Assembly: GCA_029856365.1 (NCBI GenBank)
Contig: JAHQWW010000016.1
Span: forward strand, 1-52,765
Direction of reading: 5' to 3'
DNA: 52,765 bases
Source: Candidatus Hodarchaeota archaeon
GTDB taxonomy: Archaea > Asgardarchaeota > Heimdallarchaeia > Hodarchaeales > Hodarchaeaceae
How positions within the stretch are numbered: position 1 is the stretch's first letter; the number at the start of each line of letters is the position of its first letter. A program made the translations under genes and the position numbers. Positions 25,868 to 40,299 of this stretch are shown one piece after another. Under the pieces are notes generated by a model. The model searched no databases and was not told where the DNA came from. It saw only the letters and a list, made by a program, of their open reading frames with translations.

Positions 25868-27832
25868 TTATTTGGTTTCAAAAAGGACTTTATGGAAAAA
25901 GTCCGCTTCTCTTGTTAATGCGTCAATATTATTATTTTTTTTCCGAAATCCATGAGTTTCTCCTTCGTATTCAATGTACTCACTGAGGATACCTTTTTCC
26001 TCAAGAATTTCAGCCACCTCACGAGACACCTCAGGTACAACAACTTTATCATCCTTGCCTTGAAACAAGATCATAGGTGACTTTAAGTTATCTAAATGAT
26101 TAATAGGGGAACGCTCTTTGTAGATTTGTTCACCCTCGGGGTCGGATAGAGATTTTCCTATCAACCAGTCAATATATCTCGATTCAAATTTATGGATCTG
26201 TTTAGTGAGAGTGATCAAATTCCCAATTCCAAAATAACTAGCTCCTACTTGAAATGTATCTGGGAATAATGTCAATACACGTTGTACTGCATATCCACCA
26301 GCACTTCCTCCTGTGATTGCCACTTTTTGGGAAATAATTCCTTGCTGCAATAGAAAATTAACAGCATCTTTAATGTCTTGAGCATCGATGACGCCCCAAG
26401 TTCCTTTTAGTGCGTCTCTGTACTGTCTTCCATAGGAAGTACTCCCTCTATAATCAAGATCAATGATAGCATACCCTTGATTAGTCCAAAACTGCTTTGA
26501 TAATGTATATACTCTCCTTGCTCTCGCGGTAGGTCCACCATGAACCATAACAATCAATGGTGGCTTATCTCCTTCGGGAGCAACATATTTCTTATTCTTT
26601 GGTAAATATAGTAGACCATAAGCTCTCTTTCCATCGGAAGTCGGATATTCAAGATGTTGGGGTATGGAGATGTCCTGTTCTGAAAGAGGATTTGTGAAAG
26701 ATGATTTAATAATGTCATAAGTCATTGATTGAAGATCAAATTTAACAAGAGTAGAAGGTTTATTGAAACTATTTCCAAAAAATACAATTTCATGTTCCGA
26801 ATAAGCCTGAATTCCATAATAGTCATCAAAAGGTGACTGGAGTGTTTCTAAAACTCTTGTTATAGGGTCGATTAAGGCGAGAAAGCTCTGCCCTTTCTTT
26901 TCATAATTTGCCACAATTCGTTCGCTGCTGGGCAAAAAATCCCAGCTCATGAATCTAAACCCCCACATTGGTAATCCAAACTCTGCAAGTTCCTGTGTGA
27001 TTGCTCTTATTTCACCATCATAATACTGGTAAAGATTCCACCAATTTTTCGGACTTTCTTCTGGTTGGCTCTCTTCATCCATGACAAAGAAAATGTGATC
27101 ATTATGATTGAACCGAATTGCACCAATTGAGATACCTTCCCCTCCTGCAATGATTTTCTCAGACCCTAAAACAATAGAGTTGTATTTTAGGTCTGCTAAT
27201 ACAAGCTCTGTGGAATTCCATGGCATATTAGGATGATCATATTGTAACCATGCAATCTGACTTCCATCTGGAGAGATAATGGGATCAAAATAGAAATCTT
27301 TTCCTTCTACGACGATTTCAGGCTCCTGAATAGCATTTTTTGTAATATCGAGGCATGCAATATAATTTTCATTTTCTTTTTCCATAAACTCTTTTTCATA
27401 AACAAAGAATAACATTTTGCCATCTGGCGCCAAAATTGGGGCTGCATACTTTCCTAAAGAACCATCCTCATTTCTTTCAGGGGTTAAGGGGACAGGTGAT
27501 TCTGTTCCTTTGAGTGCTGACCGATAGAGGCGCTGATCATTGAAATTAACATAGAAGACATTCCTCTTACCTACCTCCCAACATATACCACCATATTCAT
27601 GAACTCGGGTTCGTACATTTACATCTGCAGGTAAGACATCAAAAACTTCCCCCTTATCGTTTTGACAAACGAGTGCGACTCGACCATTCTCTGCAGGACG
27701 TAGTTCAGACCAATAAATATAATCATTAAGAATTTTAATATCATTGAAAGATATCATATCTTCAAAGACCTGTTCGGGTGTTATATTAGGAATCCATTTA
27801 TGATAAGGTTTAATTTGCTTATTTTTTACCAT
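25868..27832 (-). CDS. S9 family peptidase (acylaminoacyl/prolyl oligopeptidase)
   Basis: VHGGPT, YRGSTSYG, nucleophile GGSAGG, GKDD, ETHGF. Start moved to MVKNK (27832). Confidence 0.92.
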   Translation of the reverse strand: MVKNKQIKPYHKWIPNITPEQVFEDMISFNDIKILNDYIYWSELRPAENGRVALVCQNDKGEVFDVLPADVNVRTRVHEYGGICWEVGKRNVFYVNFNDQRLYRSALKGTESPVPLTPERNEDGSLGKYAAPILAPDGKMLFFVYEKEFMEKENENYIACLDITKNAIQEPEIVVEGKDFYFDPIISPDGSQIAWLQYDHPNMPWNSTELVLADLKYNSIVLGSEKIIAGGEGISIGAIRFNHNDHIFFVMDEESQPEESPKNWWNLYQYYDGEIRAITQELAEFGLPMWGFRFMSWDFLPSSERIVANYEKKGQSFLALIDPITRVLETLQSPFDDYYGIQAYSEHEIVFFGNSFNKPSTLVKFDLQSMTYDIIKSSFTNPLSEQDISIPQHLEYPTSDGKRAYGLLYLPKNKKYVAPEGDKPPLIVMVHGGPTARARRVYTLSKQFWTNQGYAIIDLDYRGSTSYGRQYRDALKGTWGVIDAQDIKDAVNFLLQQGIISQKVAITGGSAGGYAVQRVLTLFPDTFQVGASYFGIGNLITLTKQIHKFESRYIDWLIGKSLSDPEGEQIYKERSPINHLDNLKSPMILFQGKDDKVVVPEVSREVAEILEEKGILSEYIEYEGETHGFRKKNNNIDALTREADFFHKVLFETK

Positions 27833-28491
27833 CTTAAACACCTTGTAAGACAGTTCTTGTAAAATATTGTTTAATTCATGAAGTTTTTTGTATTCTCTAA
27901 ATTGATTAACAAAATCTTGGTCATATTTAGAATTAAAATTTGAGAATTGAAAAATTTGGATCATTTCTAGGAGCTAAAATTCTCTTATCTTCAGCTAGTT
28001 AACACTATAACCTTCAAATCCAACTATATTAGTATTTCCAGTTTTGCATTTCTTATGACACAAAAATAAGATTCGACACAATTGTAATCGCATAAGAGCT
28101 AATTGCAATTGAGCTTTAATGTGGGAGAGATAAGAATCTTGTATTGAGCGAGTAAAAATGAGTTCTTTGGCATTTTTTGCTAAAGAATTATCTAAACCGT
28201 TTACTGTGGTAAATCCCATTCTTTTTGCTTCATTCAACCATTCTTCTATTTCTTCTCTATTAAAGGGCCAAGAATCGTTCAATATGAAAACTTTTGTGTA
28301 TTTCTAATTAATGTTTCACTTTCTACTTCTCAATTAGCTACAATTTCAAATGATAATCTTTTCCTAATGAAGAAATAAATAAATCGGGTCAAATGATATG
28401 GGAGCTTTATAAAAATAAAAAATATAATCTTCGCTTAGAAATATTCCTCTTGGAAATCCAAAAATAAATATTCTATTTATGTGATAAAATA

Positions 28492-30207
28492 ATGAAAACA
28501 GCTAATTCTGACGAAGTTACAGCTCCCAAAGATTTTATTCGGAAAATTATTTCAGAAGATGTGGAAAACAATAAAAATAATGGACGTGTCCATACTCGTT
28601 TCCCTCCTGAACCCAATGGTTGGTTACACATTGGTCACGCGAAATCGATTTATCTTAATTTTAGTATCGCAAGTGAATTCAATGGACTATGTAATTTACG
28701 GTTTGATGATACAGATCCTACAAAAGAAAGCATGGAATATGTAGAGGCAATTGAAAAAGATATTCAATGGCTTGGGTTCGATTGGGAAGATAGACTCTAT
28801 TTTGCATCGGATTATTTTGAACAATTATATCAATTTGCTATAGAATTAATTAAAGCTGGAAAAGCTTATGTTTGTGATTTGAGCGTAGAAGAAATTAAAG
28901 CACAAAGGGGGACATCAGATGACCCAGGGATAGAAAGTCCATATCGTAATCGATCAGTGAAAGAAAATCTTGATCTATTTAAGAGGATGCTTAAGGGAGA
29001 GTTTAAAGATGGTTCTCGGGTGTTAAGAGCTAAAATTGACATGACATCTCCTAATATGCTAATGCGCGACCCAATAATGTACCGAATAAAGAGAGAACCG
29101 CATTATAGAACAGGAGATAAATGGATTATATACCCCAGTTATGATTATACACATGGACAATCAGACGCAATCGAAGGAATCACTCATTCACTCTGCTCAT
29201 TAGAATTTGAAACACATAGACCCCTATATAATTGGTATAGAGATCAGCTCCTTTCTTTAAACATGCTTAAACACTGTCCTGAACAAATTGAATTTTCACG
29301 ATTGAACTTAACATTCACTGTTATGAGTAAACGACGCTTATTGAAATTAGTTGAACGTGAGCAGGTTTCTGGCTGGGATGACCCTCGTATGCCCACACTT
29401 GCAGGTTTACGTAGACGTGGTTTTCCTCCAGTAGCTATCAGAAATTTCTTAACTAAAGTCGGAATATCAAAAAGAGAGAATTACATAGATGTTGGCCTTT
29501 TGGAAGCCTGCATCCGTGAAGAAATGGATAAAAATTGCAATCGTGTAATGGCTGTACTGCGTCCCCTAAAGGTTGTGATTCAGAACTATCCAGAGGATAA
29601 GGTTGAAGAACTGGATGCCCCTAATCATCCTAAAGATCCAAACAAAGGATCACGAAAAATACCATTTTCACAAATATTATACATTGAACGTGATGATTTT
29701 CTTGAAGAGCCCCCAAAGAGATTCTATCGGTTAGCACCCGGGAGAGAGGTTCGACTTCGATATGCATATTATATTAAATGTGTTGATGTAATTAAAGATA
29801 ATAAATCTGGAGAGATAATAGAATTACATGCATTATATGACCCTGAAACCAAAGGAGGATTTGCTCCTAATGGACGAAAAAGAGCTACTCTCCATTGGGT
29901 TTCAGCTGAACAAGCAATCAAAGCAGAAGCACGTTTATATGATAGGCTTTTCATCAAGGAGAATCCTTTGGAAAATGCAGACTTTGAAAAAAATTTGAAT
30001 CCCAAATCTTTAGAGAAGTTATCTTGTTATGTAGAACCGAGTCTTCTGGCCACAAAACCGGGGATGACGTATCAATTCGAACGTTTAGGATACTTTTGTG
30101 TTGATTCAGTGGATACAACACCTGAACAGCTAGTTTTTAATCGCACGATAACTTTACGTGACCCTTGGGCCAAGATTAAGAAAACTCAGAAAGTAAAAAA
30201 GAAATGA
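28492..30207 (+). CDS. glnS: Glutaminyl-tRNA synthetase (bacterial-type GlnRS)
   Basis: DFIRKII...[63 protein letters not shown] and [11 protein letters not shown], colinear with E. coli GlnRS as I recall it. Confidence 0.93.
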
Positions 30208-30279
30208 CAGCCCCGCCCAGAATCGAACTGGGGTTATCGGATTCAGAGTCCGAAGTGATAGCCGCTACACCACGGGGCT
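30208..30279 (-). tRNA. tRNA-Gln(CTG)
   Basis: AGCCCCG/CGGGGCT acceptor stem, TCGGA-CTCTGAA-TCCGA anticodon arm, CCCAG-TTCGATT-CTGGG T arm; G73; CCA not encoded. Confidence 0.95.
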
Positions 30280-30329
30280 TGTTCTGAATTTTTATTTTTA
30301 CCATTTGAGTAAGAAAGAGAAGAAAGAAG

Positions 30330-30436
30330 CAGCCCCGCCCGGATTTGAACCGGGGTCGAGAGGGTCAAAGCCTCTTATGCTAGTCCACATTGCCTAATTG
30401 TGGATGATATCCACAACATGTCTACACCACGGGGCT
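30330..30436 (-). tRNA. tRNA-Gln(TTG) with 34-nt D-loop insertion/intron (about 30388-30421)
   Basis: Same acceptor stem, AGAGG-CTTTGAC-CCTCT anticodon arm, CCCGG-TTCAAAT-CCGGG T arm. Removing 34 nt after G15 gives a normal 73-nt cloverleaf. Confidence 0.88.
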
Positions 30437-30525
30437 TAAGAATAGGGATTCTCTCAAGTCTTTATCAAATTAATCTTTTTTTTTTAAAATTTTATTAGAT
30501 ATTTTAATTTATGAAAAGCTGATAT

Positions 30526-30780
30526 CTATTTTGGAATTGAGAAATAAAATGTACTACCCTTCCCCTCTCCTTCTGATTCCACCCATATTCTTCTCTGATG
30601 TAATTTTATAATTGAAATTGAAATATAGAGACCCAATCCAAGGCCTTAGACTTAAATCTTTGCTTTTCCTCGTGGTTCAAACAGACTAAAAAGTCGATCA
30701 TGCTTATTAGGATTGATCCTTATTCCTTCATCTTTATCTGAGATGATATTTTCATTTGGTATGTTTCGAAAATTTCTTTG
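30526..30780 (-). pseudogene. Remnant of a sensor histidine kinase HATPase_c domain
   Basis: Translates as [71 protein letters not shown]: G1, F and G2 boxes with two internal stops. Not in the ORF track. Confidence 0.85.
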
Positions 30781-30782
30781 AT

Positions 30783-32006
30783 TCAGGCTCCAAATTTATG
30801 AACTCTTCCAGCAATACCCAGCATTAAAGGAATAAGTTGTTGGCCTATTAAATGACCTAATCCTCCTCTCATGGTTGGCCGCTCACCGAATTCAGTTACT
30901 TGATCTGGGCGAACACCCTCACCTACTATCAAAACTGGGAGTGGATCAGAAGAATGGTCTCGCATCACGCAAGGAGTGCTGTGATCTCCAGTGATACAAA
31001 TGATAGTTTCTGGTAATAATTCCAAAAAGGGTTCTATAGCAATATCTATTTCATCAATAAATTCCATTTTTTGAAGCGGTTTATTATCGTGCCCAAAATT
31101 GTCGGTTCCCTTAACGTGTAAAAACACAAATTGAGATCTTTGTAACGATTTCATAACTGCTTTAACTTTGGAATGAAGATCAGTAGGAACACCACCAGTA
31201 CCTGCATGATTATTATTAATCTTCATTCCGCAAATTGAGGCAACTCCCTTATATAAACCACCTCCTGCGACACATTCAGCAGTGAGGCCATATTTTGTTT
31301 GAAAATTTTCTAAATGAGGAGCCTTACCTGCACCTCGGACTAACAAGTAGTTTGCAGGCAGTTTATTTTTACTAATCCTTTTCTGATTTATCTCCAAAGA
31401 AGCCATTATTTCTGATGCCTCTCGGATGAATTGTTTTAATACACGAGCTGTTTTTTCAGCTTCCAAACTTGTCGGAATAATTGGATTAGGTTTCTTATTT
31501 TCAATTTTAGGATCATTTCCAGTAACATTATTAGATAAACCAGGGCCCCTTAATACAAGTGAAGCACGGTGGTCTATTCCCACTTTGAATATCGTTTCTA
31601 TATCTTCTATTCTAATATTTTGAAGTGCTTGTTCAATTTCTAGGGTTCCTTCAGAAATTCTACCGGCTCGTCTATCAAGTATTATTCCGTCTTTTATTGT
31701 AGCCATATTTGTCCGAAAAGCGATATCACCTGGTTTCACTGACACATCAGTTCCAGCCGCCTCAAAGGGTCCTCTTCCAGTGTATACTTCATAAGGATTG
31801 TATCCAAAGAGCGCAAGGTGCGCAGTATCACTACCAGGTGTAATTCCTTGTCCAATCGTGTGTAAATGACCAGTTATTCCCAATTGGGCCAACTTGTCCA
31901 TTGTAAGCGTTTTGGCCGCTTCCAAGGGTGTTTTCCCACCTAATTCTGGTATTGGACGATCACCCACACCATCCATTATAAATAAGAGAAGTTTTCGTTC
32001 CTGCAT
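30783..32006 (-). CDS. apgM: 2,3-bisphosphoglycerate-independent phosphoglycerate mutase (archaeal type)
   Basis: MDGVGDRP, TPLEAA, GSDTAHL, GRGPFEA, HVKGTDNFGHD, TGDHSTP. Start moved to MQERK (32006). Confidence 0.93.
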   Translation of the reverse strand: MQERKLLLFIMDGVGDRPIPELGGKTPLEAAKTLTMDKLAQLGITGHLHTIGQGITPGSDTAHLALFGYNPYEVYTGRGPFEAAGTDVSVKPGDIAFRTNMATIKDGIILDRRAGRISEGTLEIEQALQNIRIEDIETIFKVGIDHRASLVLRGPGLSNNVTGNDPKIENKKPNPIIPTSLEAEKTARVLKQFIREASEIMASLEINQKRISKNKLPANYLLVRGAGKAPHLENFQTKYGLTAECVAGGGLYKGVASICGMKINNNHAGTGGVPTDLHSKVKAVMKSLQRSQFVFLHVKGTDNFGHDNKPLQKMEFIDEIDIAIEPFLELLPETIICITGDHSTPCVMRDHSSDPLPVLIVGEGVRPDQVTEFGERPTMRGGLGHLIGQQLIPLMLGIAGRVHKFGA

Positions 32007-35400: not shown

Positions 35401-38400
35401 TCATTCTTTCCTCTTGTCTATTTTCCTCCTTCTAATAGTTATTATACTAGTAACTAGAGTAAGAGCTAGTATAATATAATAAACTTCAATTCCAGGAGTT
35501 CTTTTCTCAGTTGTTGTTGTAGACGCAGTTATGTTAGGAATTGTTGTACTGATTATAGATTCAGTATAGAATCGGATATTTACTGGTGTGACATAACTGT
35601 CTATTATTATTCCGTCAAACGATACTGCAGCAATGGACGCTTTGACACTAAAATGGTTTGGAGGGTTACTAGAGGAGAATATATCAGAGAAGGTGAAAGG
35701 AATGGTGTGGTATTTAATACCAGTGGCGGCAGGATTGTAAAAGGTTACTTTATCAAGTGTATTGGAACTTTTATCCCAATAAATTTCCACTGAAACTTCC
35801 AGGGAGTAACTAATGACACGATTCACAACAATGGCAACATTTACCTCAATTCTATCAGCTATTCCATCCTCATTACCATCCCCCTGAACAATCCTAATGT
35901 GTCCGATAGACAAAGGTGGACTCATGAAAAACTCTCTAAGATCATATATTTGGTCTATAAATAATGGTTGAGTCAAGATTACAAACATTCCTTCATCATC
36001 AGAAGAATAAAGCGGGACTAAAAAGATTTCAGTTAAAGGTAATATATCTAAATCATCAGCTTTCTTAGAGCTTTTTAATAAATAATAATAAGGAATTAAA
36101 AATGAGATATTATGTATACCTTCTGGAAAATACTCTTGTGTTACTGATATAGTTCCTAATTGGGCCTCATAAAAATTATTCAATTGAGCATGAACTTTTG
36201 CTGAAAAATCATAATTCCCTTCTTGATAAATATTAATTAACAAAGAAATCACAATTGTATCAAGTTTTCCATCCTCATCTCTATCCTGGGCATCAGAGGT
36301 TATTGTTGACACTCGGATTGGTAGTTTGTAATTAAATGTACTTTTGTTTGCTTTAAAGTGTGGAATGTTTAAACTTGCTTTATAGACGGATTCTAAACTA
36401 AGAATAGAGATGTTCCCATAAATAGATTCGTCAAAAGCATTTCTTACAAGAGTTTTCCCAGAGAAGAAGAATGTAGGAGTGTAATTTCCTAGTTTATTTG
36501 CATTAATTATAGTATTATTTCTAATTCTTTGTACAGAATAGTCATTTCTTGAAAAAAGATCGACCCCCACATCATATGTTCCTACCTTGTTAATTCCGAT
36601 TGATATATCAATGAAAAGACCAGTATTATTCAGTATAATCTCTGGTACCTTATTGAAGAAAGCATCAACATACGGGGAATAGTCTGAGTAGTTAACACTC
36701 GGTAATACTCCTGCATGAAAAGCAAAAGCAATCAAAGACAAATTATTTTTTTGATAACGATGTTTAAGGCCATCTTGACGATCAGGGGAATAAATGCTTG
36801 CAGTATATATTTCAAGACTGCCAATATAACTAGAATTAAACAGATCCTCTGCTTCAATTTTGAGTTTAATGGTGTTCAAACCTAAAGTGAGGTTTTTTGT
36901 AAAATTAATAATTTTCAAGAAATCTCCTTGAATAGGTTCATAATCACGAATATCAAATTCAAAAATGACGTCAATTTGAGCTATCGAAGTTACTTCCCAT
37001 GAAACCTCAATTCCTGCGTCAGTGGAGTTTTCAAATTTCGTACTACCAAGAAATGAAGAAAACCATGCTACAGGAGATTCAAAATCAGAAGCAGTATACT
37101 CCTTGGTGATATAAGGAATATACAGGGTAAAATCATATTCCTCAAATGTGAAACCCATGCTTGGGAAAAAATATGGCCCTATTAGATTATTAGCTTTGAA
37201 TATTCTTGCATCAAAGTCAATTGAGAAGCTATTAATTCCTTGAACTAACATAACACTCTTTTCAGAGGAATTAATAAGGATCATTGTTTCATTAGGATAA
37301 CTGAATGGATGTCCTGTAAAAACGATAATTTTTGTATTAATTTTTGAAGTGATATCAATACTGAATCGAATTGCATCAAGCTTATCGTCACTGTCTGAAT
37401 CAATAGCGCGGTCCATTATTGTAAAACCGACAATTGAGTCAAAATCAGTAAGAGTTTCTTTGGGTATTTCATAGAATATAGGGATGTGATATCTATACCA
37501 CGATCCAAGAATACCAAATACTGCTAGGTCGCTTATATTTTGGAATTGTTGTACGAAAAACTCTATTGTAACAGTGGTTAAACCTGGTTGATAAACACTA
37601 AATGTCTCTATTTCATAAGCAAGAAGTTCGTTCTGATTCTCGTTCCAAATTGGAATACCAATTCCAAAAGCTCCAGTTTTTGAGAAACTGAATTCCAGTT
37701 CAATTTTAATCTTTTCAGGGAAACTATTTCCTCCAATATCTTCTTTTTCAATTTTATATGAGTTCAAACGATTATCAAGCTGGTTGAATGAGGTACAGTC
37801 ATAAATAGATGTTGTATAAACCTCTAAATTGTAATTCAAAAACAAAGAGAAATTATTTTTTCCTAAAGCCAACTCGTTTATGATATAAGATCCATTATAT
37901 CCTGATGATTCTAAAAGACCCCCTGGGACTGAGATACTTAAATTCTGGATACCTTCTGCTAAAGTTAAATTCAACCAGTCCCACATGAACACGTACCGCC
38001 CGAAATGATAATCAGGACGATTTTGAGCAATTGAATACCAAAAATTATACTTCCCTGCTTTTGAAACATTGACCTCAATTGAGAATGATAATTCATCAAA
38101 TAAACCATCTGAATCAAAATCGACAGGGTTACTTTCAATCTTTCCAGTTAAGGAGGCAGGTTGAAAAGAAGATAGTGCTCTTTCATCAGTTTCTTGAATG
38201 AGTAAAACATATTGTCCTGGTGTCTTATCTTCAATCCTTATGAAATAGTCCCCAGAACTTTGCGCTTTAAAGATAGCAATTTCAGGAAGATGCCCCTCTC
38301 TAGTACTTCGATTGAAAAAAGTTCCATTTTCGTCTGTAATAAAAAGATTAAGATTCCCTGTAAGGTTAGTAAGTTCAACAGAATAAACTTGATCCTTAAC

Positions 38401-40299
38401 AACTGGGAATGAATAAAGATCTCTATCCCATTTGTTTATTTCTCCAGTGATAGGGGTTCCAATGATCACAGGTAGTGCGCCACCATATGTTTCACCTGCG
38501 TCTGTTCCGCTATCCGCGTCATTACTTATTACATCAGGTTGAAGATAAAGGGTGGCATTGTAATAGATTTTACTTCCGTTTTTTACCATGATGGCGCCAT
38601 TCATGGCAGAATCAGGCATGGCAACTTTTACTCTAGCCCTAATCCATCCCTCAGTGTCCAAATCTACTAAAGAAGCATTGACATAAGGTTGTAGAGATGA
38701 AGTTATATTAAATGCATTAAAAGATTGGTTGAGAAATATGTCTAATTGATATTCAAATAATTCTCCTGGACTAAGTATTAATGGAGATGAGTTAATAAAG
38801 GATGGATATGCGAAAACTGATGGAGTTTGAAGATATTCAAGTGCAGCAGAAGCGTTTATTAGTCCTGCTCCCTGAACAAAAACATGCCTACCCATATCAG
38901 ATGCTGTACTCAACATTGCACTTCTAATTTCATCTATACTAGCCCCAAGTTCTTCTGAACGATTGAAAGAGAGAAGAAGGGCTGCTACACCTGCAACAGC
39001 TGGAGCTGACATAGAAGTTCCACTAGCAATGGTATATTGCCCTCCTGGTTCTAAAGAGAGAATGCCTCTTCCTGGTGCAACGATGTCTGGGTCAACAACG
39101 CCATTGGGAGAAGGACCCCTACTGGAAAAAAAAGCCACATCGTTATAGATATTTGATGCACCAACGGTAATTGATTTCGATTCCATCCCTGGGCTAGAAA
39201 TGCTGTTAGGTTCTGGTCCACTGTTCCCAGCAGAAGTGATAACCATGACATTATTTTCCCAAGCTGAATGTATGGCTTCCTCAAAAAGAGGATCTGCGTC
39301 TCCTGGTAAACCACCGAGGGACATTGAAACAATGTCAGCACCATTAGAAACAGCCCAATCTATCCCCTTCACGATCCAACTAATATATCCTCCGATTGTT
39401 TTGTCTAAAACTTTTCCATTCATAAGCTTAGCTCCAGGGGCTACTCCTATGAGGTAGCCATTACCTGCAGCAATACCGGCAACATGTGTACCGTGAAAAT
39501 GATCATCCATGGGATTGGTATCATTCATGCCATCATTGTCAAAATCAACGAATGAAGCTTCTAAGATGACCTTTGGATCTTTTGTTGAATCATCATTGTC
39601 AATATCATCTAAATCTGGATGTGTTTTATCAATACCAGTATCAAGAATAGCAATTGTTACTCCTGAACCATTTATCCCAAGGTTCTGCAAATATCGTGCT
39701 CCAATAATATTTTCTGAAGGAAATATAGAAATATCAAAAGAATTCCAGTCTTCTTCTATGAAAGGAATGTATTCATCTAAAAATACCCCTTTTACGCCAG
39801 GGAGTGATTTTACATCATTCACTGATTCTAGTGAGGTTTGCATAATGGCAATCGGCATAGAGTTTAAGATTTCGAAGTCATGTTTGGCAAGTACTGGATT
39901 TCTCATCTCTTGAAAGGAATTAAAGAAAACTAAGAGTTTAACTTGCTTTTTGTCCCATAAAGATCTGGGTGTTGTTTGGAATATTTCTTCTAATGATCTA
40001 GAAAGGTGTATATGTTTTTGTTGAGAAGTTTCAAGATATTGAGGCAATGTTTTCCCTTCTTTTAATTTGCTATAATTATTCCACGCATTATAATCTTCAG
40101 AAGGATTATTTACTTCATTATTAATATCAATTGAAGGCACTAGATCATTTATTATTGAGTTAACTTGTGATGGTATCTGTTTTTGCAAAAGAATTATTGG
40201 TACGAAGACATGTGTAAATACAATAACAATTAATAAAAATGAGAACCTCCTCTTGAACTTATTATACAAAGTCACAATGTCATTCTTTCTATGCATCAA
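35401..40299 (-). CDS. Large surface-anchored S8 (subtilisin-like) serine protease
   Basis: Catalytic triad ILDTG / HGTHVAG / GTSMSAP, oxyanion AGN, PPC-like domain, repeated DxDxDG beta modules, Thr-rich linker + TPG + TM + basic tail. Confidence 0.92.
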   Translation of the reverse strand: MMHRKNDIVTLYNKFKRRFSFLLIVIVFTHVFVPIILLQKQIPSQVNSIINDLVPSIDINNEVNNPSEDYNAWNNYSKLKEGKTLPQYLETSQQKHIHLSRSLEEIFQTTPRSLWDKKQVKLLVFFNSFQEMRNPVLAKHDFEILNSMPIAIMQTSLESVNDVKSLPGVKGVFLDEYIPFIEEDWNSFDISIFPSENIIGARYLQNLGINGSGVTIAILDTGIDKTHPDLDDIDNDDSTKDPKVILEASFVDFDNDGMNDTNPMDDHFHGTHVAGIAAGNGYLIGVAPGAKLMNGKVLDKTIGGYISWIVKGIDWAVSNGADIVSMSLGGLPGDADPLFEEAIHSAWENNVMVITSAGNSGPEPNSISSPGMESKSITVGASNIYNDVAFFSSRGPSPNGVVDPDIVAPGRGILSLEPGGQYTIASGTSMSAPAVAGVAALLLSFNRSEELGASIDEIRSAMLSTASDMGRHVFVQGAGLINASAALEYLQTPSVFAYPSFINSSPLILSPGELFEYQLDIFLNQSFNAFNITSSLQPYVNASLVDLDTEGWIRARVKVAMPDSAMNGAIMVKNGSKIYYNATLYLQPDVISNDADSGTDAGETYGGALPVIIGTPITGEINKWDRDLYSFPVVKDQVYSVELTNLTGNLNLFITDENGTFFNRSTREGHLPEIAIFKAQSSGDYFIRIEDKTPGQYVLLIQETDERALSSFQPASLTGKIESNPVDFDSDGLFDELSFSIEVNVSKAGKYNFWYSIAQNRPDYHFGRYVFMWDWLNLTLAEGIQNLSISVPGGLLESSGYNGSYIINELALGKNNFSLFLNYNLEVYTTSIYDCTSFNQLDNRLNSYKIEKEDIGGNSFPEKIKIELEFSFSKTGAFGIGIPIWNENQNELLAYEIETFSVYQPGLTTVTIEFFVQQFQNISDLAVFGILGSWYRYHIPIFYEIPKETLTDFDSIVGFTIMDRAIDSDSDDKLDAIRFSIDITSKINTKIIVFTGHPFSYPNETMILINSSEKSVMLVQGINSFSIDFDARIFKANNLIGPYFFPSMGFTFEEYDFTLYIPYITKEYTASDFESPVAWFSSFLGSTKFENSTDAGIEVSWEVTSIAQIDVIFEFDIRDYEPIQGDFLKIINFTKNLTLGLNTIKLKIEAEDLFNSSYIGSLEIYTASIYSPDRQDGLKHRYQKNNLSLIAFAFHAGVLPSVNYSDYSPYVDAFFNKVPEIILNNTGLFIDISIGINKVGTYDVGVDLFSRNDYSVQRIRNNTIINANKLGNYTPTFFFSGKTLVRNAFDESIYGNISILSLESVYKASLNIPHFKANKSTFNYKLPIRVSTITSDAQDRDEDGKLDTIVISLLINIYQEGNYDFSAKVHAQLNNFYEAQLGTISVTQEYFPEGIHNISFLIPYYYLLKSSKKADDLDILPLTEIFLVPLYSSDDEGMFVILTQPLFIDQIYDLREFFMSPPLSIGHIRIVQGDGNEDGIADRIEVNVAIVVNRVISYSLEVSVEIYWDKSSNTLDKVTFYNPAATGIKYHTIPFTFSDIFSSSNPPNHFSVKASIAAVSFDGIIIDSYVTPVNIRFYTESIISTTIPNITASTTTTEKRTPGIEVYYIILALTLVTSIITIRRRKIDKRKE

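Follow-up and report, generated by a model that had tools for sequence, protein, structure and literature searches.

The window analysed in this study, a stretch of 52,765 nucleotides comprising the whole of contig JAHQWW010000016.1 (positions 1 to 52,765, forward strand) of a Candidatus Hodarchaeota archaeon (GTDB lineage Asgardarchaeota; Heimdallarchaeia; Hodarchaeales; Hodarchaeaceae; assembly GCA_029856365.1), carries an intact glnS gene (28492 to 30207, plus strand), which encodes a 571-amino acid (aa) glutaminyl-tRNA synthetase (GlnRS; P0001) of bacterial type with no domain appended at its N- or C-terminus, and which is followed at once by two tRNA-Gln genes of archaeal sequence. The same genome holds a second, dispersed pair of tRNA-Gln genes together with the archaeal glutamyl-tRNA synthetase (GluRS) and the gatD and gatE genes of the indirect route to Gln-tRNA(Gln). 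From the sequences of these genes we consider it probable that two parallel routes operate in this organism, one in which GlnRS would charge the linked tRNAs bearing G73 and A37, and another in which GluRS and GatDE would serve the classical pair bearing A73 and G37; the same judgement includes that the gene reached or left the Heimdallarchaeia on a single occasion, by transfer between the archaeal and bacterial domains. The assignment of the tRNA sets to the enzymes that charge them is the part of this explanation that we infer.

The open reading frame begins with ATG and ends with TGA, and the AT-rich intergenic region on its 5' side (28283 to 28491) is presumed to contain the promoter. Pfam analysis of the product identified a class I E/Q catalytic domain and both beta-barrel anticodon-binding domains (PF03950 and PF20974), while the NCBIfam glnS equivalog TIGR00440 was matched over profile positions 1–524 of 524 with 705.9 bits against a cut-off of 425.8. 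Homologues of this protein are named 'glutamine--tRNA ligase/YqeY domain fusion protein' by NCBI; the match to the corresponding fusion model NF011291 is, however, limited to profile positions 2–567 of 769, so that no YqeY tail is present, and the protein extends only 11 residues past the core, the alignment with the Escherichia coli enzyme reaching query residue 562. The N-terminal domain that is appended to eukaryotic GlnRS (PF04558/PF04557-type) is likewise absent. An earlier note on this DNA, made from the letters alone, had described an intact 571-aa GlnRS with HIGH and MSKR motifs and a beta-barrel anticodon domain that lacked both the eukaryotic extension and the YqeY tail, and this description is borne out on each point by the domain and family models. 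Among solved structures, the protein scored highest against GlnRS of Pseudomonas aeruginosa (684 bits) and E. coli (647), followed by those of Deinococcus (500), human (460) and yeast (415), with lower scores against eukaryotic (266) and archaeal (192) GluRS.

In E. coli numbering, the HIGH and VMSKR motifs align to residues 40–43 and 268–271, and R30, E34, H40–H43, Y211, S227, C229, F233, Q255, M268–K270, R341, R402, R410 and R412 are all conserved. The glutamine-pocket residues R30, Y211, C229 and Q255 are kept in every complete Asgard GlnRS, while R341 and R402, the arginines of the anticodon-binding domains that read U35 and G36, are invariant among them. In a comparison of 218 family members, residues 229 and 255 are in the GlnRS state in all Asgard GlnRS, whereas the archaeal GluRS outgroup has R at 229 and F, I or L at 255. 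The possibility raised in the earlier note that the protein might group with archaeal GluRS can be set aside, as the archaeal gltX model TIGR00463 (gltX_arch) yielded 360.8 bits, below its cut-off of 401.75, in an alignment that begins at profile position 85 and thus lacks the GluRS N-domain, and since C229 and Q255 stand where archaeal GluRS has R and F/I. Judged on profile scores and diagnostic residues, the window protein is a true bacterial-type GlnRS and not a GluRS.

The first of the two linked tRNA genes, tRNA-Gln(CUG) (30208 to 30279, minus strand; 60.9 bits to the Rfam tRNA model), abuts the glnS stop codon with its 3' end in a convergent orientation. The second, tRNA-Gln(UUG) (30330 to 30436, minus strand; 79.4 bits to model R1), lies 50 bases beyond and contains a 34-nucleotide (nt) D-loop intron (approximately 30388 to 30421) after G15, which is also found in the closest relative (L010); apart from this insert the gene corresponds to the intron-less orthologues of other relatives (L007 and L008). 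The order of glnS, convergent tRNA-Gln(CUG) and tRNA-Gln(UUG) is kept in a closed Heimdall chromosome and in other metagenome-assembled genomes (MAGs), and all tRNAs of this conserved module, including (in mature form) those of the window, share A1-U72, G2-C71, C3-G70, G10, A37 and G73, with no encoded CCA. Co-transfer of a bacterial tRNA with glnS was ruled out, since the linked tRNAs are archaeal in sequence. A convergent tRNA-Gln(CUG) directly after glnS does occur in a close bacterial relative, the Deltaproteobacteria MAG B60_G16 (L012:5754-5827), where the tRNA is fully bacterial (U1-A72, G73 and an encoded CCA).

The linked tRNAs served to build a covariance model with which further tRNA-Gln genes were sought, and the source genome was found to possess four in two classes, i.e. 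the linked A37/G73 pair and a dispersed, intron-bearing G37/A73 pair. The latter consists of tRNA-Gln(UUG) with a T-loop intron (C81:42520-42623) and tRNA-Gln(CUG) with a canonical anticodon-loop intron at 37/38 (C32:26889-26996). ARAGORN in intron mode labels the gene on C32 'tRNA-Pyl(cta)', which represents a risk of mis-annotation in automated pipelines. Because each linked tRNA is 79–81% identical to the dispersed tRNA of the same anticodon, and unlike bacterial tRNA-Gln, the linked pair can be regarded as duplicates of the native archaeal genes. The two pairs have identical acceptor stems and also share G10 and the anticodon. Set against the bacterial glutamine identity elements (G73, U1-A72, G2-C71, G3-C70, G10, U34, U35, G36, A37 and U38; PMC9976931, Table 1), they differ at exactly two determinants, 73 and 37, and at both of these it is the linked set that shows the bacterial state, in addition to matching at G2-C71, G10, U35 and G36.

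All components of the indirect route were identified in the source genome, thereby answering the earlier note's question as to its GluRS type and the presence of gatD and gatE. The archaeal GluRS is encoded on contig C178 (482.5 bits to TIGR00463), and adjacent gatD and gatE genes are located on contig C91, of which gatE is intact (663 aa) while gatD (L004:120-1469, minus strand) contains one in-frame TAA at codon 157 of an otherwise intact 450-codon frame. This codon is GAA (Glu) in the nearest relative, G018, at a site that is variable, and the stop could reflect an error, variation between strains or a nonsense mutation of recent date; should it be real, the organism may lean more on GlnRS. 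Across the class to which the window belongs, gatD exceeds its cut-off in 75 of 83 genomes, among them all closed GlnRS-positive genomes, and the direct route has therefore been added to the indirect one rather than having replaced it. GatDE is reported to recognise the tRNA D-loop and A1:U72 (PMC9499178), and A1-U72 as well as the archaeal D-arm are kept in both tRNA-Gln sets. Two further observations were made on these genes. Most genomes of family f7 (the families are introduced below) contain two full-length gatD copies, both above the cut-off (e.g. G072:C41:173726-174940 and G072:C20:32459-33664), one of which shares a contig with glnS in G072 and G075. Genomes of the window's own family, f1, encode an archaeal GluRS of either of two types that have diverged strongly, characterised by HIGH with 'TRLPPEPSG' or HIGN with 'LRLAPYPSG' (L196, L198 and L199 versus L005, L195 and L197) and separated by a branch of approximately 1.6–1.9 substitutions per site, and the type does not simply track the presence of GlnRS.

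A sequence of events can be proposed in which the native tRNA-Gln pair was duplicated and the copies changed from A73 to G73 and from G37 to A37. The enzyme, for its part, would have lost the acidic acceptor-stem reader D235, a residue which in E. coli GlnRS reads the tRNA pairs 2-71 and 3-70; D or N occupies this position in 69 of 75 close bacterial GlnRS, while it is T or S in f1 (T in the window enzyme) and V, I or N in families f4 and f7. Such a loss is in keeping with C3-G70 in the archaeal acceptor stem. GlnRS would then charge the linked G73/A37 tRNAs directly with glutamine, while in parallel non-discriminating GluRS and GatDE would serve the dispersed A73/G37 pair. Any Glu-tRNA(Gln) that might be formed could still be corrected by GatDE, because both tRNA sets keep A1-U72 and the archaeal D-arm.

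The distribution of GlnRS was surveyed in 399 genomes of the phylum, of which 83, assigned to families f1 to f7, represent the window's class. GlnRS was present in 41 of these 83 genomes, namely 11 of 21 in f1 (without the window's own genome), 21 of 31 in f4 and 10 of 12 in f7 by E-value (8 over the curated cut-off); none was found in f2, f3, f5 or f6, nor in any of the 316 genomes of the phylum outside this class. The gene is thus confined to three of more than 30 Asgard families, all belonging to the Heimdallarchaeia, and across these two distinct gene arrangements link it to the pair of tRNA-Gln isoacceptors. In f1, linked A37/G73 tRNAs accompany GlnRS in 12 of 12 positive genomes (the window's being counted), and this state is invariant in every linked copy, while the sampled GlnRS-negative genomes of the family possess only G37/A73 tRNAs, with the exception of a linked-type tRNA situated on a 5.4-kb contig, at 105 nt from its end. 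In f4 and f7 a single tRNA-Gln set was found, mostly A37/A73 and often directly 3' of glnS on the same strand.

The f4 and f7 enzymes are also longer (approximately 645 aa), by virtue of an N-terminal extension of about 90 aa that is absent from f1 (L175-L184 and L192-L194). The archaeal GluRS model aligns to these proteins from profile position 2, and hhalign matched the extension to the archaeal GluRS N-domain with 99.7% probability (E = 1e-25), while comparison by the same method with the N-domain of eukaryotic GlnRS and with the YqeY tail of bacteria detected no similarity (probability <2%); Pfam searches returned no family for either the extension or the GluRS N-domain. The extension is 29–39% identical to GluRS N-domains, compared to 32% between orthologous GluRS N-domains of different families, even though the rate of evolution of this domain is about double that of the core (42% versus 69% identity between f4 and f7 GlnRS). 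As the identity of the extension to GluRS is as high as that among orthologous GluRS N-domains, these figures favour a scenario in which a native GluRS N-domain was captured after GlnRS had become established. The pattern suggests two solutions to one compatibility problem, whereby either the tRNA was retuned (f1) or a native tRNA-binding domain was added to the enzyme (f4 and f7).

Phylogenetic analysis of the GlnRS and GluRS families, which the earlier note had proposed as a check, placed the Asgard enzyme on the bacterial side. In a thorough maximum-likelihood search (IQ-TREE, 59 taxa, LG+F+G4), all Asgard GlnRS formed one clade (support 100/100), as did the eukaryotic enzymes (98.8/100), and the Asgard clade was nested some ten nodes deep within bacteria, as sister to a Planctomycetota sequence (78/90) and then to a Bacillota MAG (99/94); in FastTree the ladder that nests it had support of 88–96. 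A position as sister to eukaryotes (topology T4) was rejected under LG (approximately unbiased test, p-AU 0.001), posterior mean site frequency (PMSF; 0.016) and C10 (0.011) models, although the root of the bacterial subtree was not re-optimised in T4 and its rejection is to be read as somewhat conservative evidence. That the enzyme is bacterial-type with a single origin in the Heimdallarchaeia is therefore robustly supported. The note's suggestion that direct glutaminylation was acquired by transfer agrees with these results, since a true GlnRS on a non-chimeric contig (see below) would make inter-domain transfer the natural reading, and import from a sediment bacterium appears somewhat more likely than the opposite direction. 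GlnRS of apicomplexan type (P0129 from Plasmodium inui, P0124 and P0151), with an N-terminal extension of approximately 190 aa, was also located within the bacterial-type clade, apart from the other eukaryotic GlnRS.

The foremost alternative to such an import, to which we would assign a real if minor chance, is a reversed or older event, in which the Heimdallarchaeia GlnRS is basal to the bacterial-type clade, between the eukaryotic and bacterial enzymes, bacteria having acquired GlnRS from a lineage that resembled Heimdallarchaeia, or the two having drawn it from a common proto-eukaryote-related source; the f4/f7 N-domain could then be ancestral. Constraining bacteria to be monophyletic without Asgard sequences cost 28.8 log-likelihood (lnL) units under LG with a p-AU of 0.22, and the constrained tree is the same ladder rooted at its opposite end, (outgroup,(eukaryotes,(f4/f7,(f1,bacteria)))). 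The C10 and C20 mixtures, whose results are comparisons of fixed topologies only, fit far better than LG and slightly prefer basal trees: under LG+C20+F+G4 the basal placement was ahead by 3.0 lnL, and under LG+C10+F+G4 topology T2 was best, followed by T3 (+1.2) and the nested tree T1 (+7.5), with none of the three rejected. PMSF, for which the nested tree served as guide, preferred nesting by approximately 15 lnL without rejecting the others, and basal trees had p-AU values of 0.14–0.39 under LG and PMSF. The attachment of the eukaryote/outgroup branch among long-branched bacteria in the LG tree also carries a risk of long-branch attraction, and the homology of the f4/f7 N-domain with that of archaeal GluRS would suit an ancestral enzyme. 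Against a basal origin, LG+F+G4 and PMSF favour nesting by 15–29 lnL, in line with the FastTree ladder, the gene occurs in so few Asgard families yet in many bacterial phyla, and the identity of the N-domain to GluRS suggests later capture over ancient co-descent.

The earlier note had further proposed that the lineage may be informative on the origin of GlnRS, and this idea holds, given that the tests do not separate a nested from a basal Asgard placement. It is possible, though we would not favour it, that the Heimdallarchaeia enzyme is the earliest branch of 'bacterial-type' GlnRS, between the eukaryotic and bacterial enzymes. If so, the archaeal lineage nearest to eukaryotes would have possessed GlnRS and been the source from which bacteria obtained it, as opposed to the classical model in which bacteria obtained GlnRS directly from eukaryotes; the ancestral state would be approached most closely by the f4/f7 form, which has the N-domain and A73 tRNAs, and the f1 form, without the N-domain and with G73, would foreshadow the bacterial system.

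With regard to the two parallel routes, several findings weigh against the division of labour proposed here. The linked tRNAs differ from the bacterial identity set at 1-72 (A-U), 3-70 (C-G) and 38, and L136, which matters for specificity in E. coli GlnRS, is replaced by Ser in the window enzyme. The f4 and f7 families run GlnRS with A73 tRNAs, while in GlnRS-less families, where G37/A73 is otherwise the state, two f6 genomes (G060 and G057; L158, L159, L161 and L162) have both tRNA-Gln with G73 and G37. These observations rule out G73 as a general signature of GlnRS use and indicate that G73 may be helpful for GlnRS but not required; A37 tracks the presence of GlnRS better than does G73. In addition, the indirect route may be impaired in this MAG by the gatD stop codon, unless the latter is an error.

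Such findings would be accommodated by redundancy without insulation, in which GlnRS charges all four tRNA-Gln, the linked pair represents extra copies (perhaps for co-regulation) and G73/A37 reflects tuning or drift. We regard this as a less probable account, worth about as much credence as one would give to a one-in-four guess. It would be in keeping with the single A73 set that f4 and f7 pair with GlnRS, the closed genome G027 having two tRNA-Gln only, with G73 in the GlnRS-less f6 genomes, and with the acceptor stem, G10 and anticodon common to both sets. Drift or mere tuning is difficult to reconcile, on the other hand, with the invariant G73/A37 state of the f1 linked copies and their occurrence in every GlnRS-positive genome and, the copy at one contig edge excepted, in no GlnRS-negative one, while the tRNA-synthetase N-domain added to the f4/f7 enzymes may compensate for A73 tRNAs. 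A GlnRS-derived paralogue with a role other than housekeeping (regulatory, tRNA-modifying or charging of a non-canonical substrate) is improbable: it could draw on the retention of a complete indirect route across the class and on the vicinity of GlnRS to cox and oxidative-stress genes in Hodarchaeales and Kariarchaeaceae (2024 preprint), which hints at conditional use, but every tested catalytic, glutamine-pocket and anticodon-binding residue is conserved, the score lies far above the equivalog cut-off, and the gene is linked to both tRNA-Gln isoacceptors in two arrangements.

The contig itself was assessed for chimerism, as the earlier note had advised. The window constitutes the entire contig C142 of the source genome (G000), a 4.24-Mb MAG of 204 contigs with a completeness of 83.6% and a contamination of 4.2%, and its GC content is flat. 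The genome carries archaeal GluRS, gatD and gatE and many intron-bearing tRNAs, and an archaeal-type apgM, scoring above its cut-off, lies immediately downstream of the linked tRNAs, consistent with the note's statement that the gene sits among archaeal ones. The closest GlnRS homologues (70–90% identity) all derive from Heimdall, Hodarchaeales or 'Promethearchaeota' MAGs, including closed chromosomes, the module being present in closed Asgard chromosomes of 4.94 Mb and 3.16 Mb, while bacterial homologues start at approximately 65% identity. Among Logan contigs from other sequencing runs, X2 spans 26081 to 31661 unbroken at even depth, and X4, not flagged as a possible source, bridges both gene junctions with contigs covering 26081 to 29343 and 29568 to 30901, again at even depth. 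No RNA data set was listed as containing the stretch, which speaks neither for nor against its expression. Although the contamination estimate and the 65% identity to bacterial GlnRS could be taken to point to a bacterial piece mis-joined or mis-binned into an archaeal MAG, such an artefact is effectively excluded by the uniform GC content, the closed-chromosome copies, the conserved module, the bridging contigs, the neighbouring apgM and the abutment of glnS on tRNAs whose body and intron are archaeal.

The system resembles several known ones in part. Bacterial GlnRS/tRNA-Gln (E. coli GlnS, 1GTR/1QTQ/1O0B; P. aeruginosa, 5BNZ) is alike in domain architecture, length, conserved residues and tRNA G73, G2-C71, G10, U35, G36 and A37, but here the host is archaeal, the tRNAs have A1-U72 and C3-G70, lack CCA and include one with a D-loop intron, the enzyme carries T for D235 and S for L136, and GluRS/GatDE as well as a second tRNA-Gln set are present in the same genome. 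Cytosolic GlnRS of eukaryotes (human, 4YE6/4R3Z; yeast, 4H3S) shares the homologous core (415–460 bits) and a non-acidic residue at position 235 (T/V/I), but has the N-domain that the window enzyme lacks and, as judged by the rejected topology (p 0.001–0.016), is no sister to it. The discriminator of eukaryotic tRNA-Gln is U73, and a U73 was also encountered in a tRNA-Gln(UUG) (L164, G072:C41:228195-228267) of a GlnRS-positive f7 genome. The archaeal indirect pathway of non-discriminating GluRS (Methanothermobacter thermautotrophicus, 3AII) and GatDE (Oshikane 2006 and Rampias 2010, as cited in PMC9499178) is present in the same genome with classical A1-U72/A73 tRNAs and leads to the same product, Gln-tRNA(Gln). 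A single codon family is likewise served by two charging systems side by side, told apart partly by discriminator or first base pair, in the case of the two PylRS/tRNA-Pyl pairs (G73 versus A73) of HMET1 and of GluRS1/GluRS2 of Helicobacter pylori; in the present case, however, direct and transamidation routes of different domain origin are combined. A bacterial-type CCA-adding enzyme (CCA2) has been described in Heimdallarchaeia (bioRxiv 10.64898/2026.05.29.728689), and is a different bacterial-type tRNA-handling enzyme of the same class; that paper does not mention GlnRS.

A 2022 review stated that all known archaea lack GlnRS and attributed this to the incompatibility of archaeal tRNA-Gln (A73, A1-U72) with bacterial or eukaryotic GlnRS (PMC9499178), while a transfer of GlnRS to archaea and bacteria was stated, with no details given, in an essay of the same year (PMC8879553), and the 2024 preprint named GlnRS in passing, without analysis, as a gene next to cox clusters of Hodarchaeales and Kariarchaeaceae. 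No paper with an analysis of the duplicated tRNAs, of the fused N-domain or of the place of Asgard GlnRS in the tree was encountered in our literature search. The locus is a natural counter-example to the statement that archaea have no GlnRS, and seems to reveal the way in which the barrier was overcome. It opens the incompatibility hypothesis of Tumbula and Söll to direct testing, since four tRNAs and two forms of the enzyme are available from nature, and as a natural pair of parallel glutamine-charging systems it is of interest for genetic-code engineering. Moreover, the class of archaea most closely related to eukaryotes is shown to contain a GlnRS, whose place in the tree current data do not distinguish from the base of the bacterial clade, and the question of where bacterial GlnRS originated is thereby reopened.

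Elsewhere in the window, positions 35401 to 40299 (minus strand) encode a 1632-aa subtilase (Peptidase_S8 and PPC domains), most of whose long C-terminal region lacks annotation.

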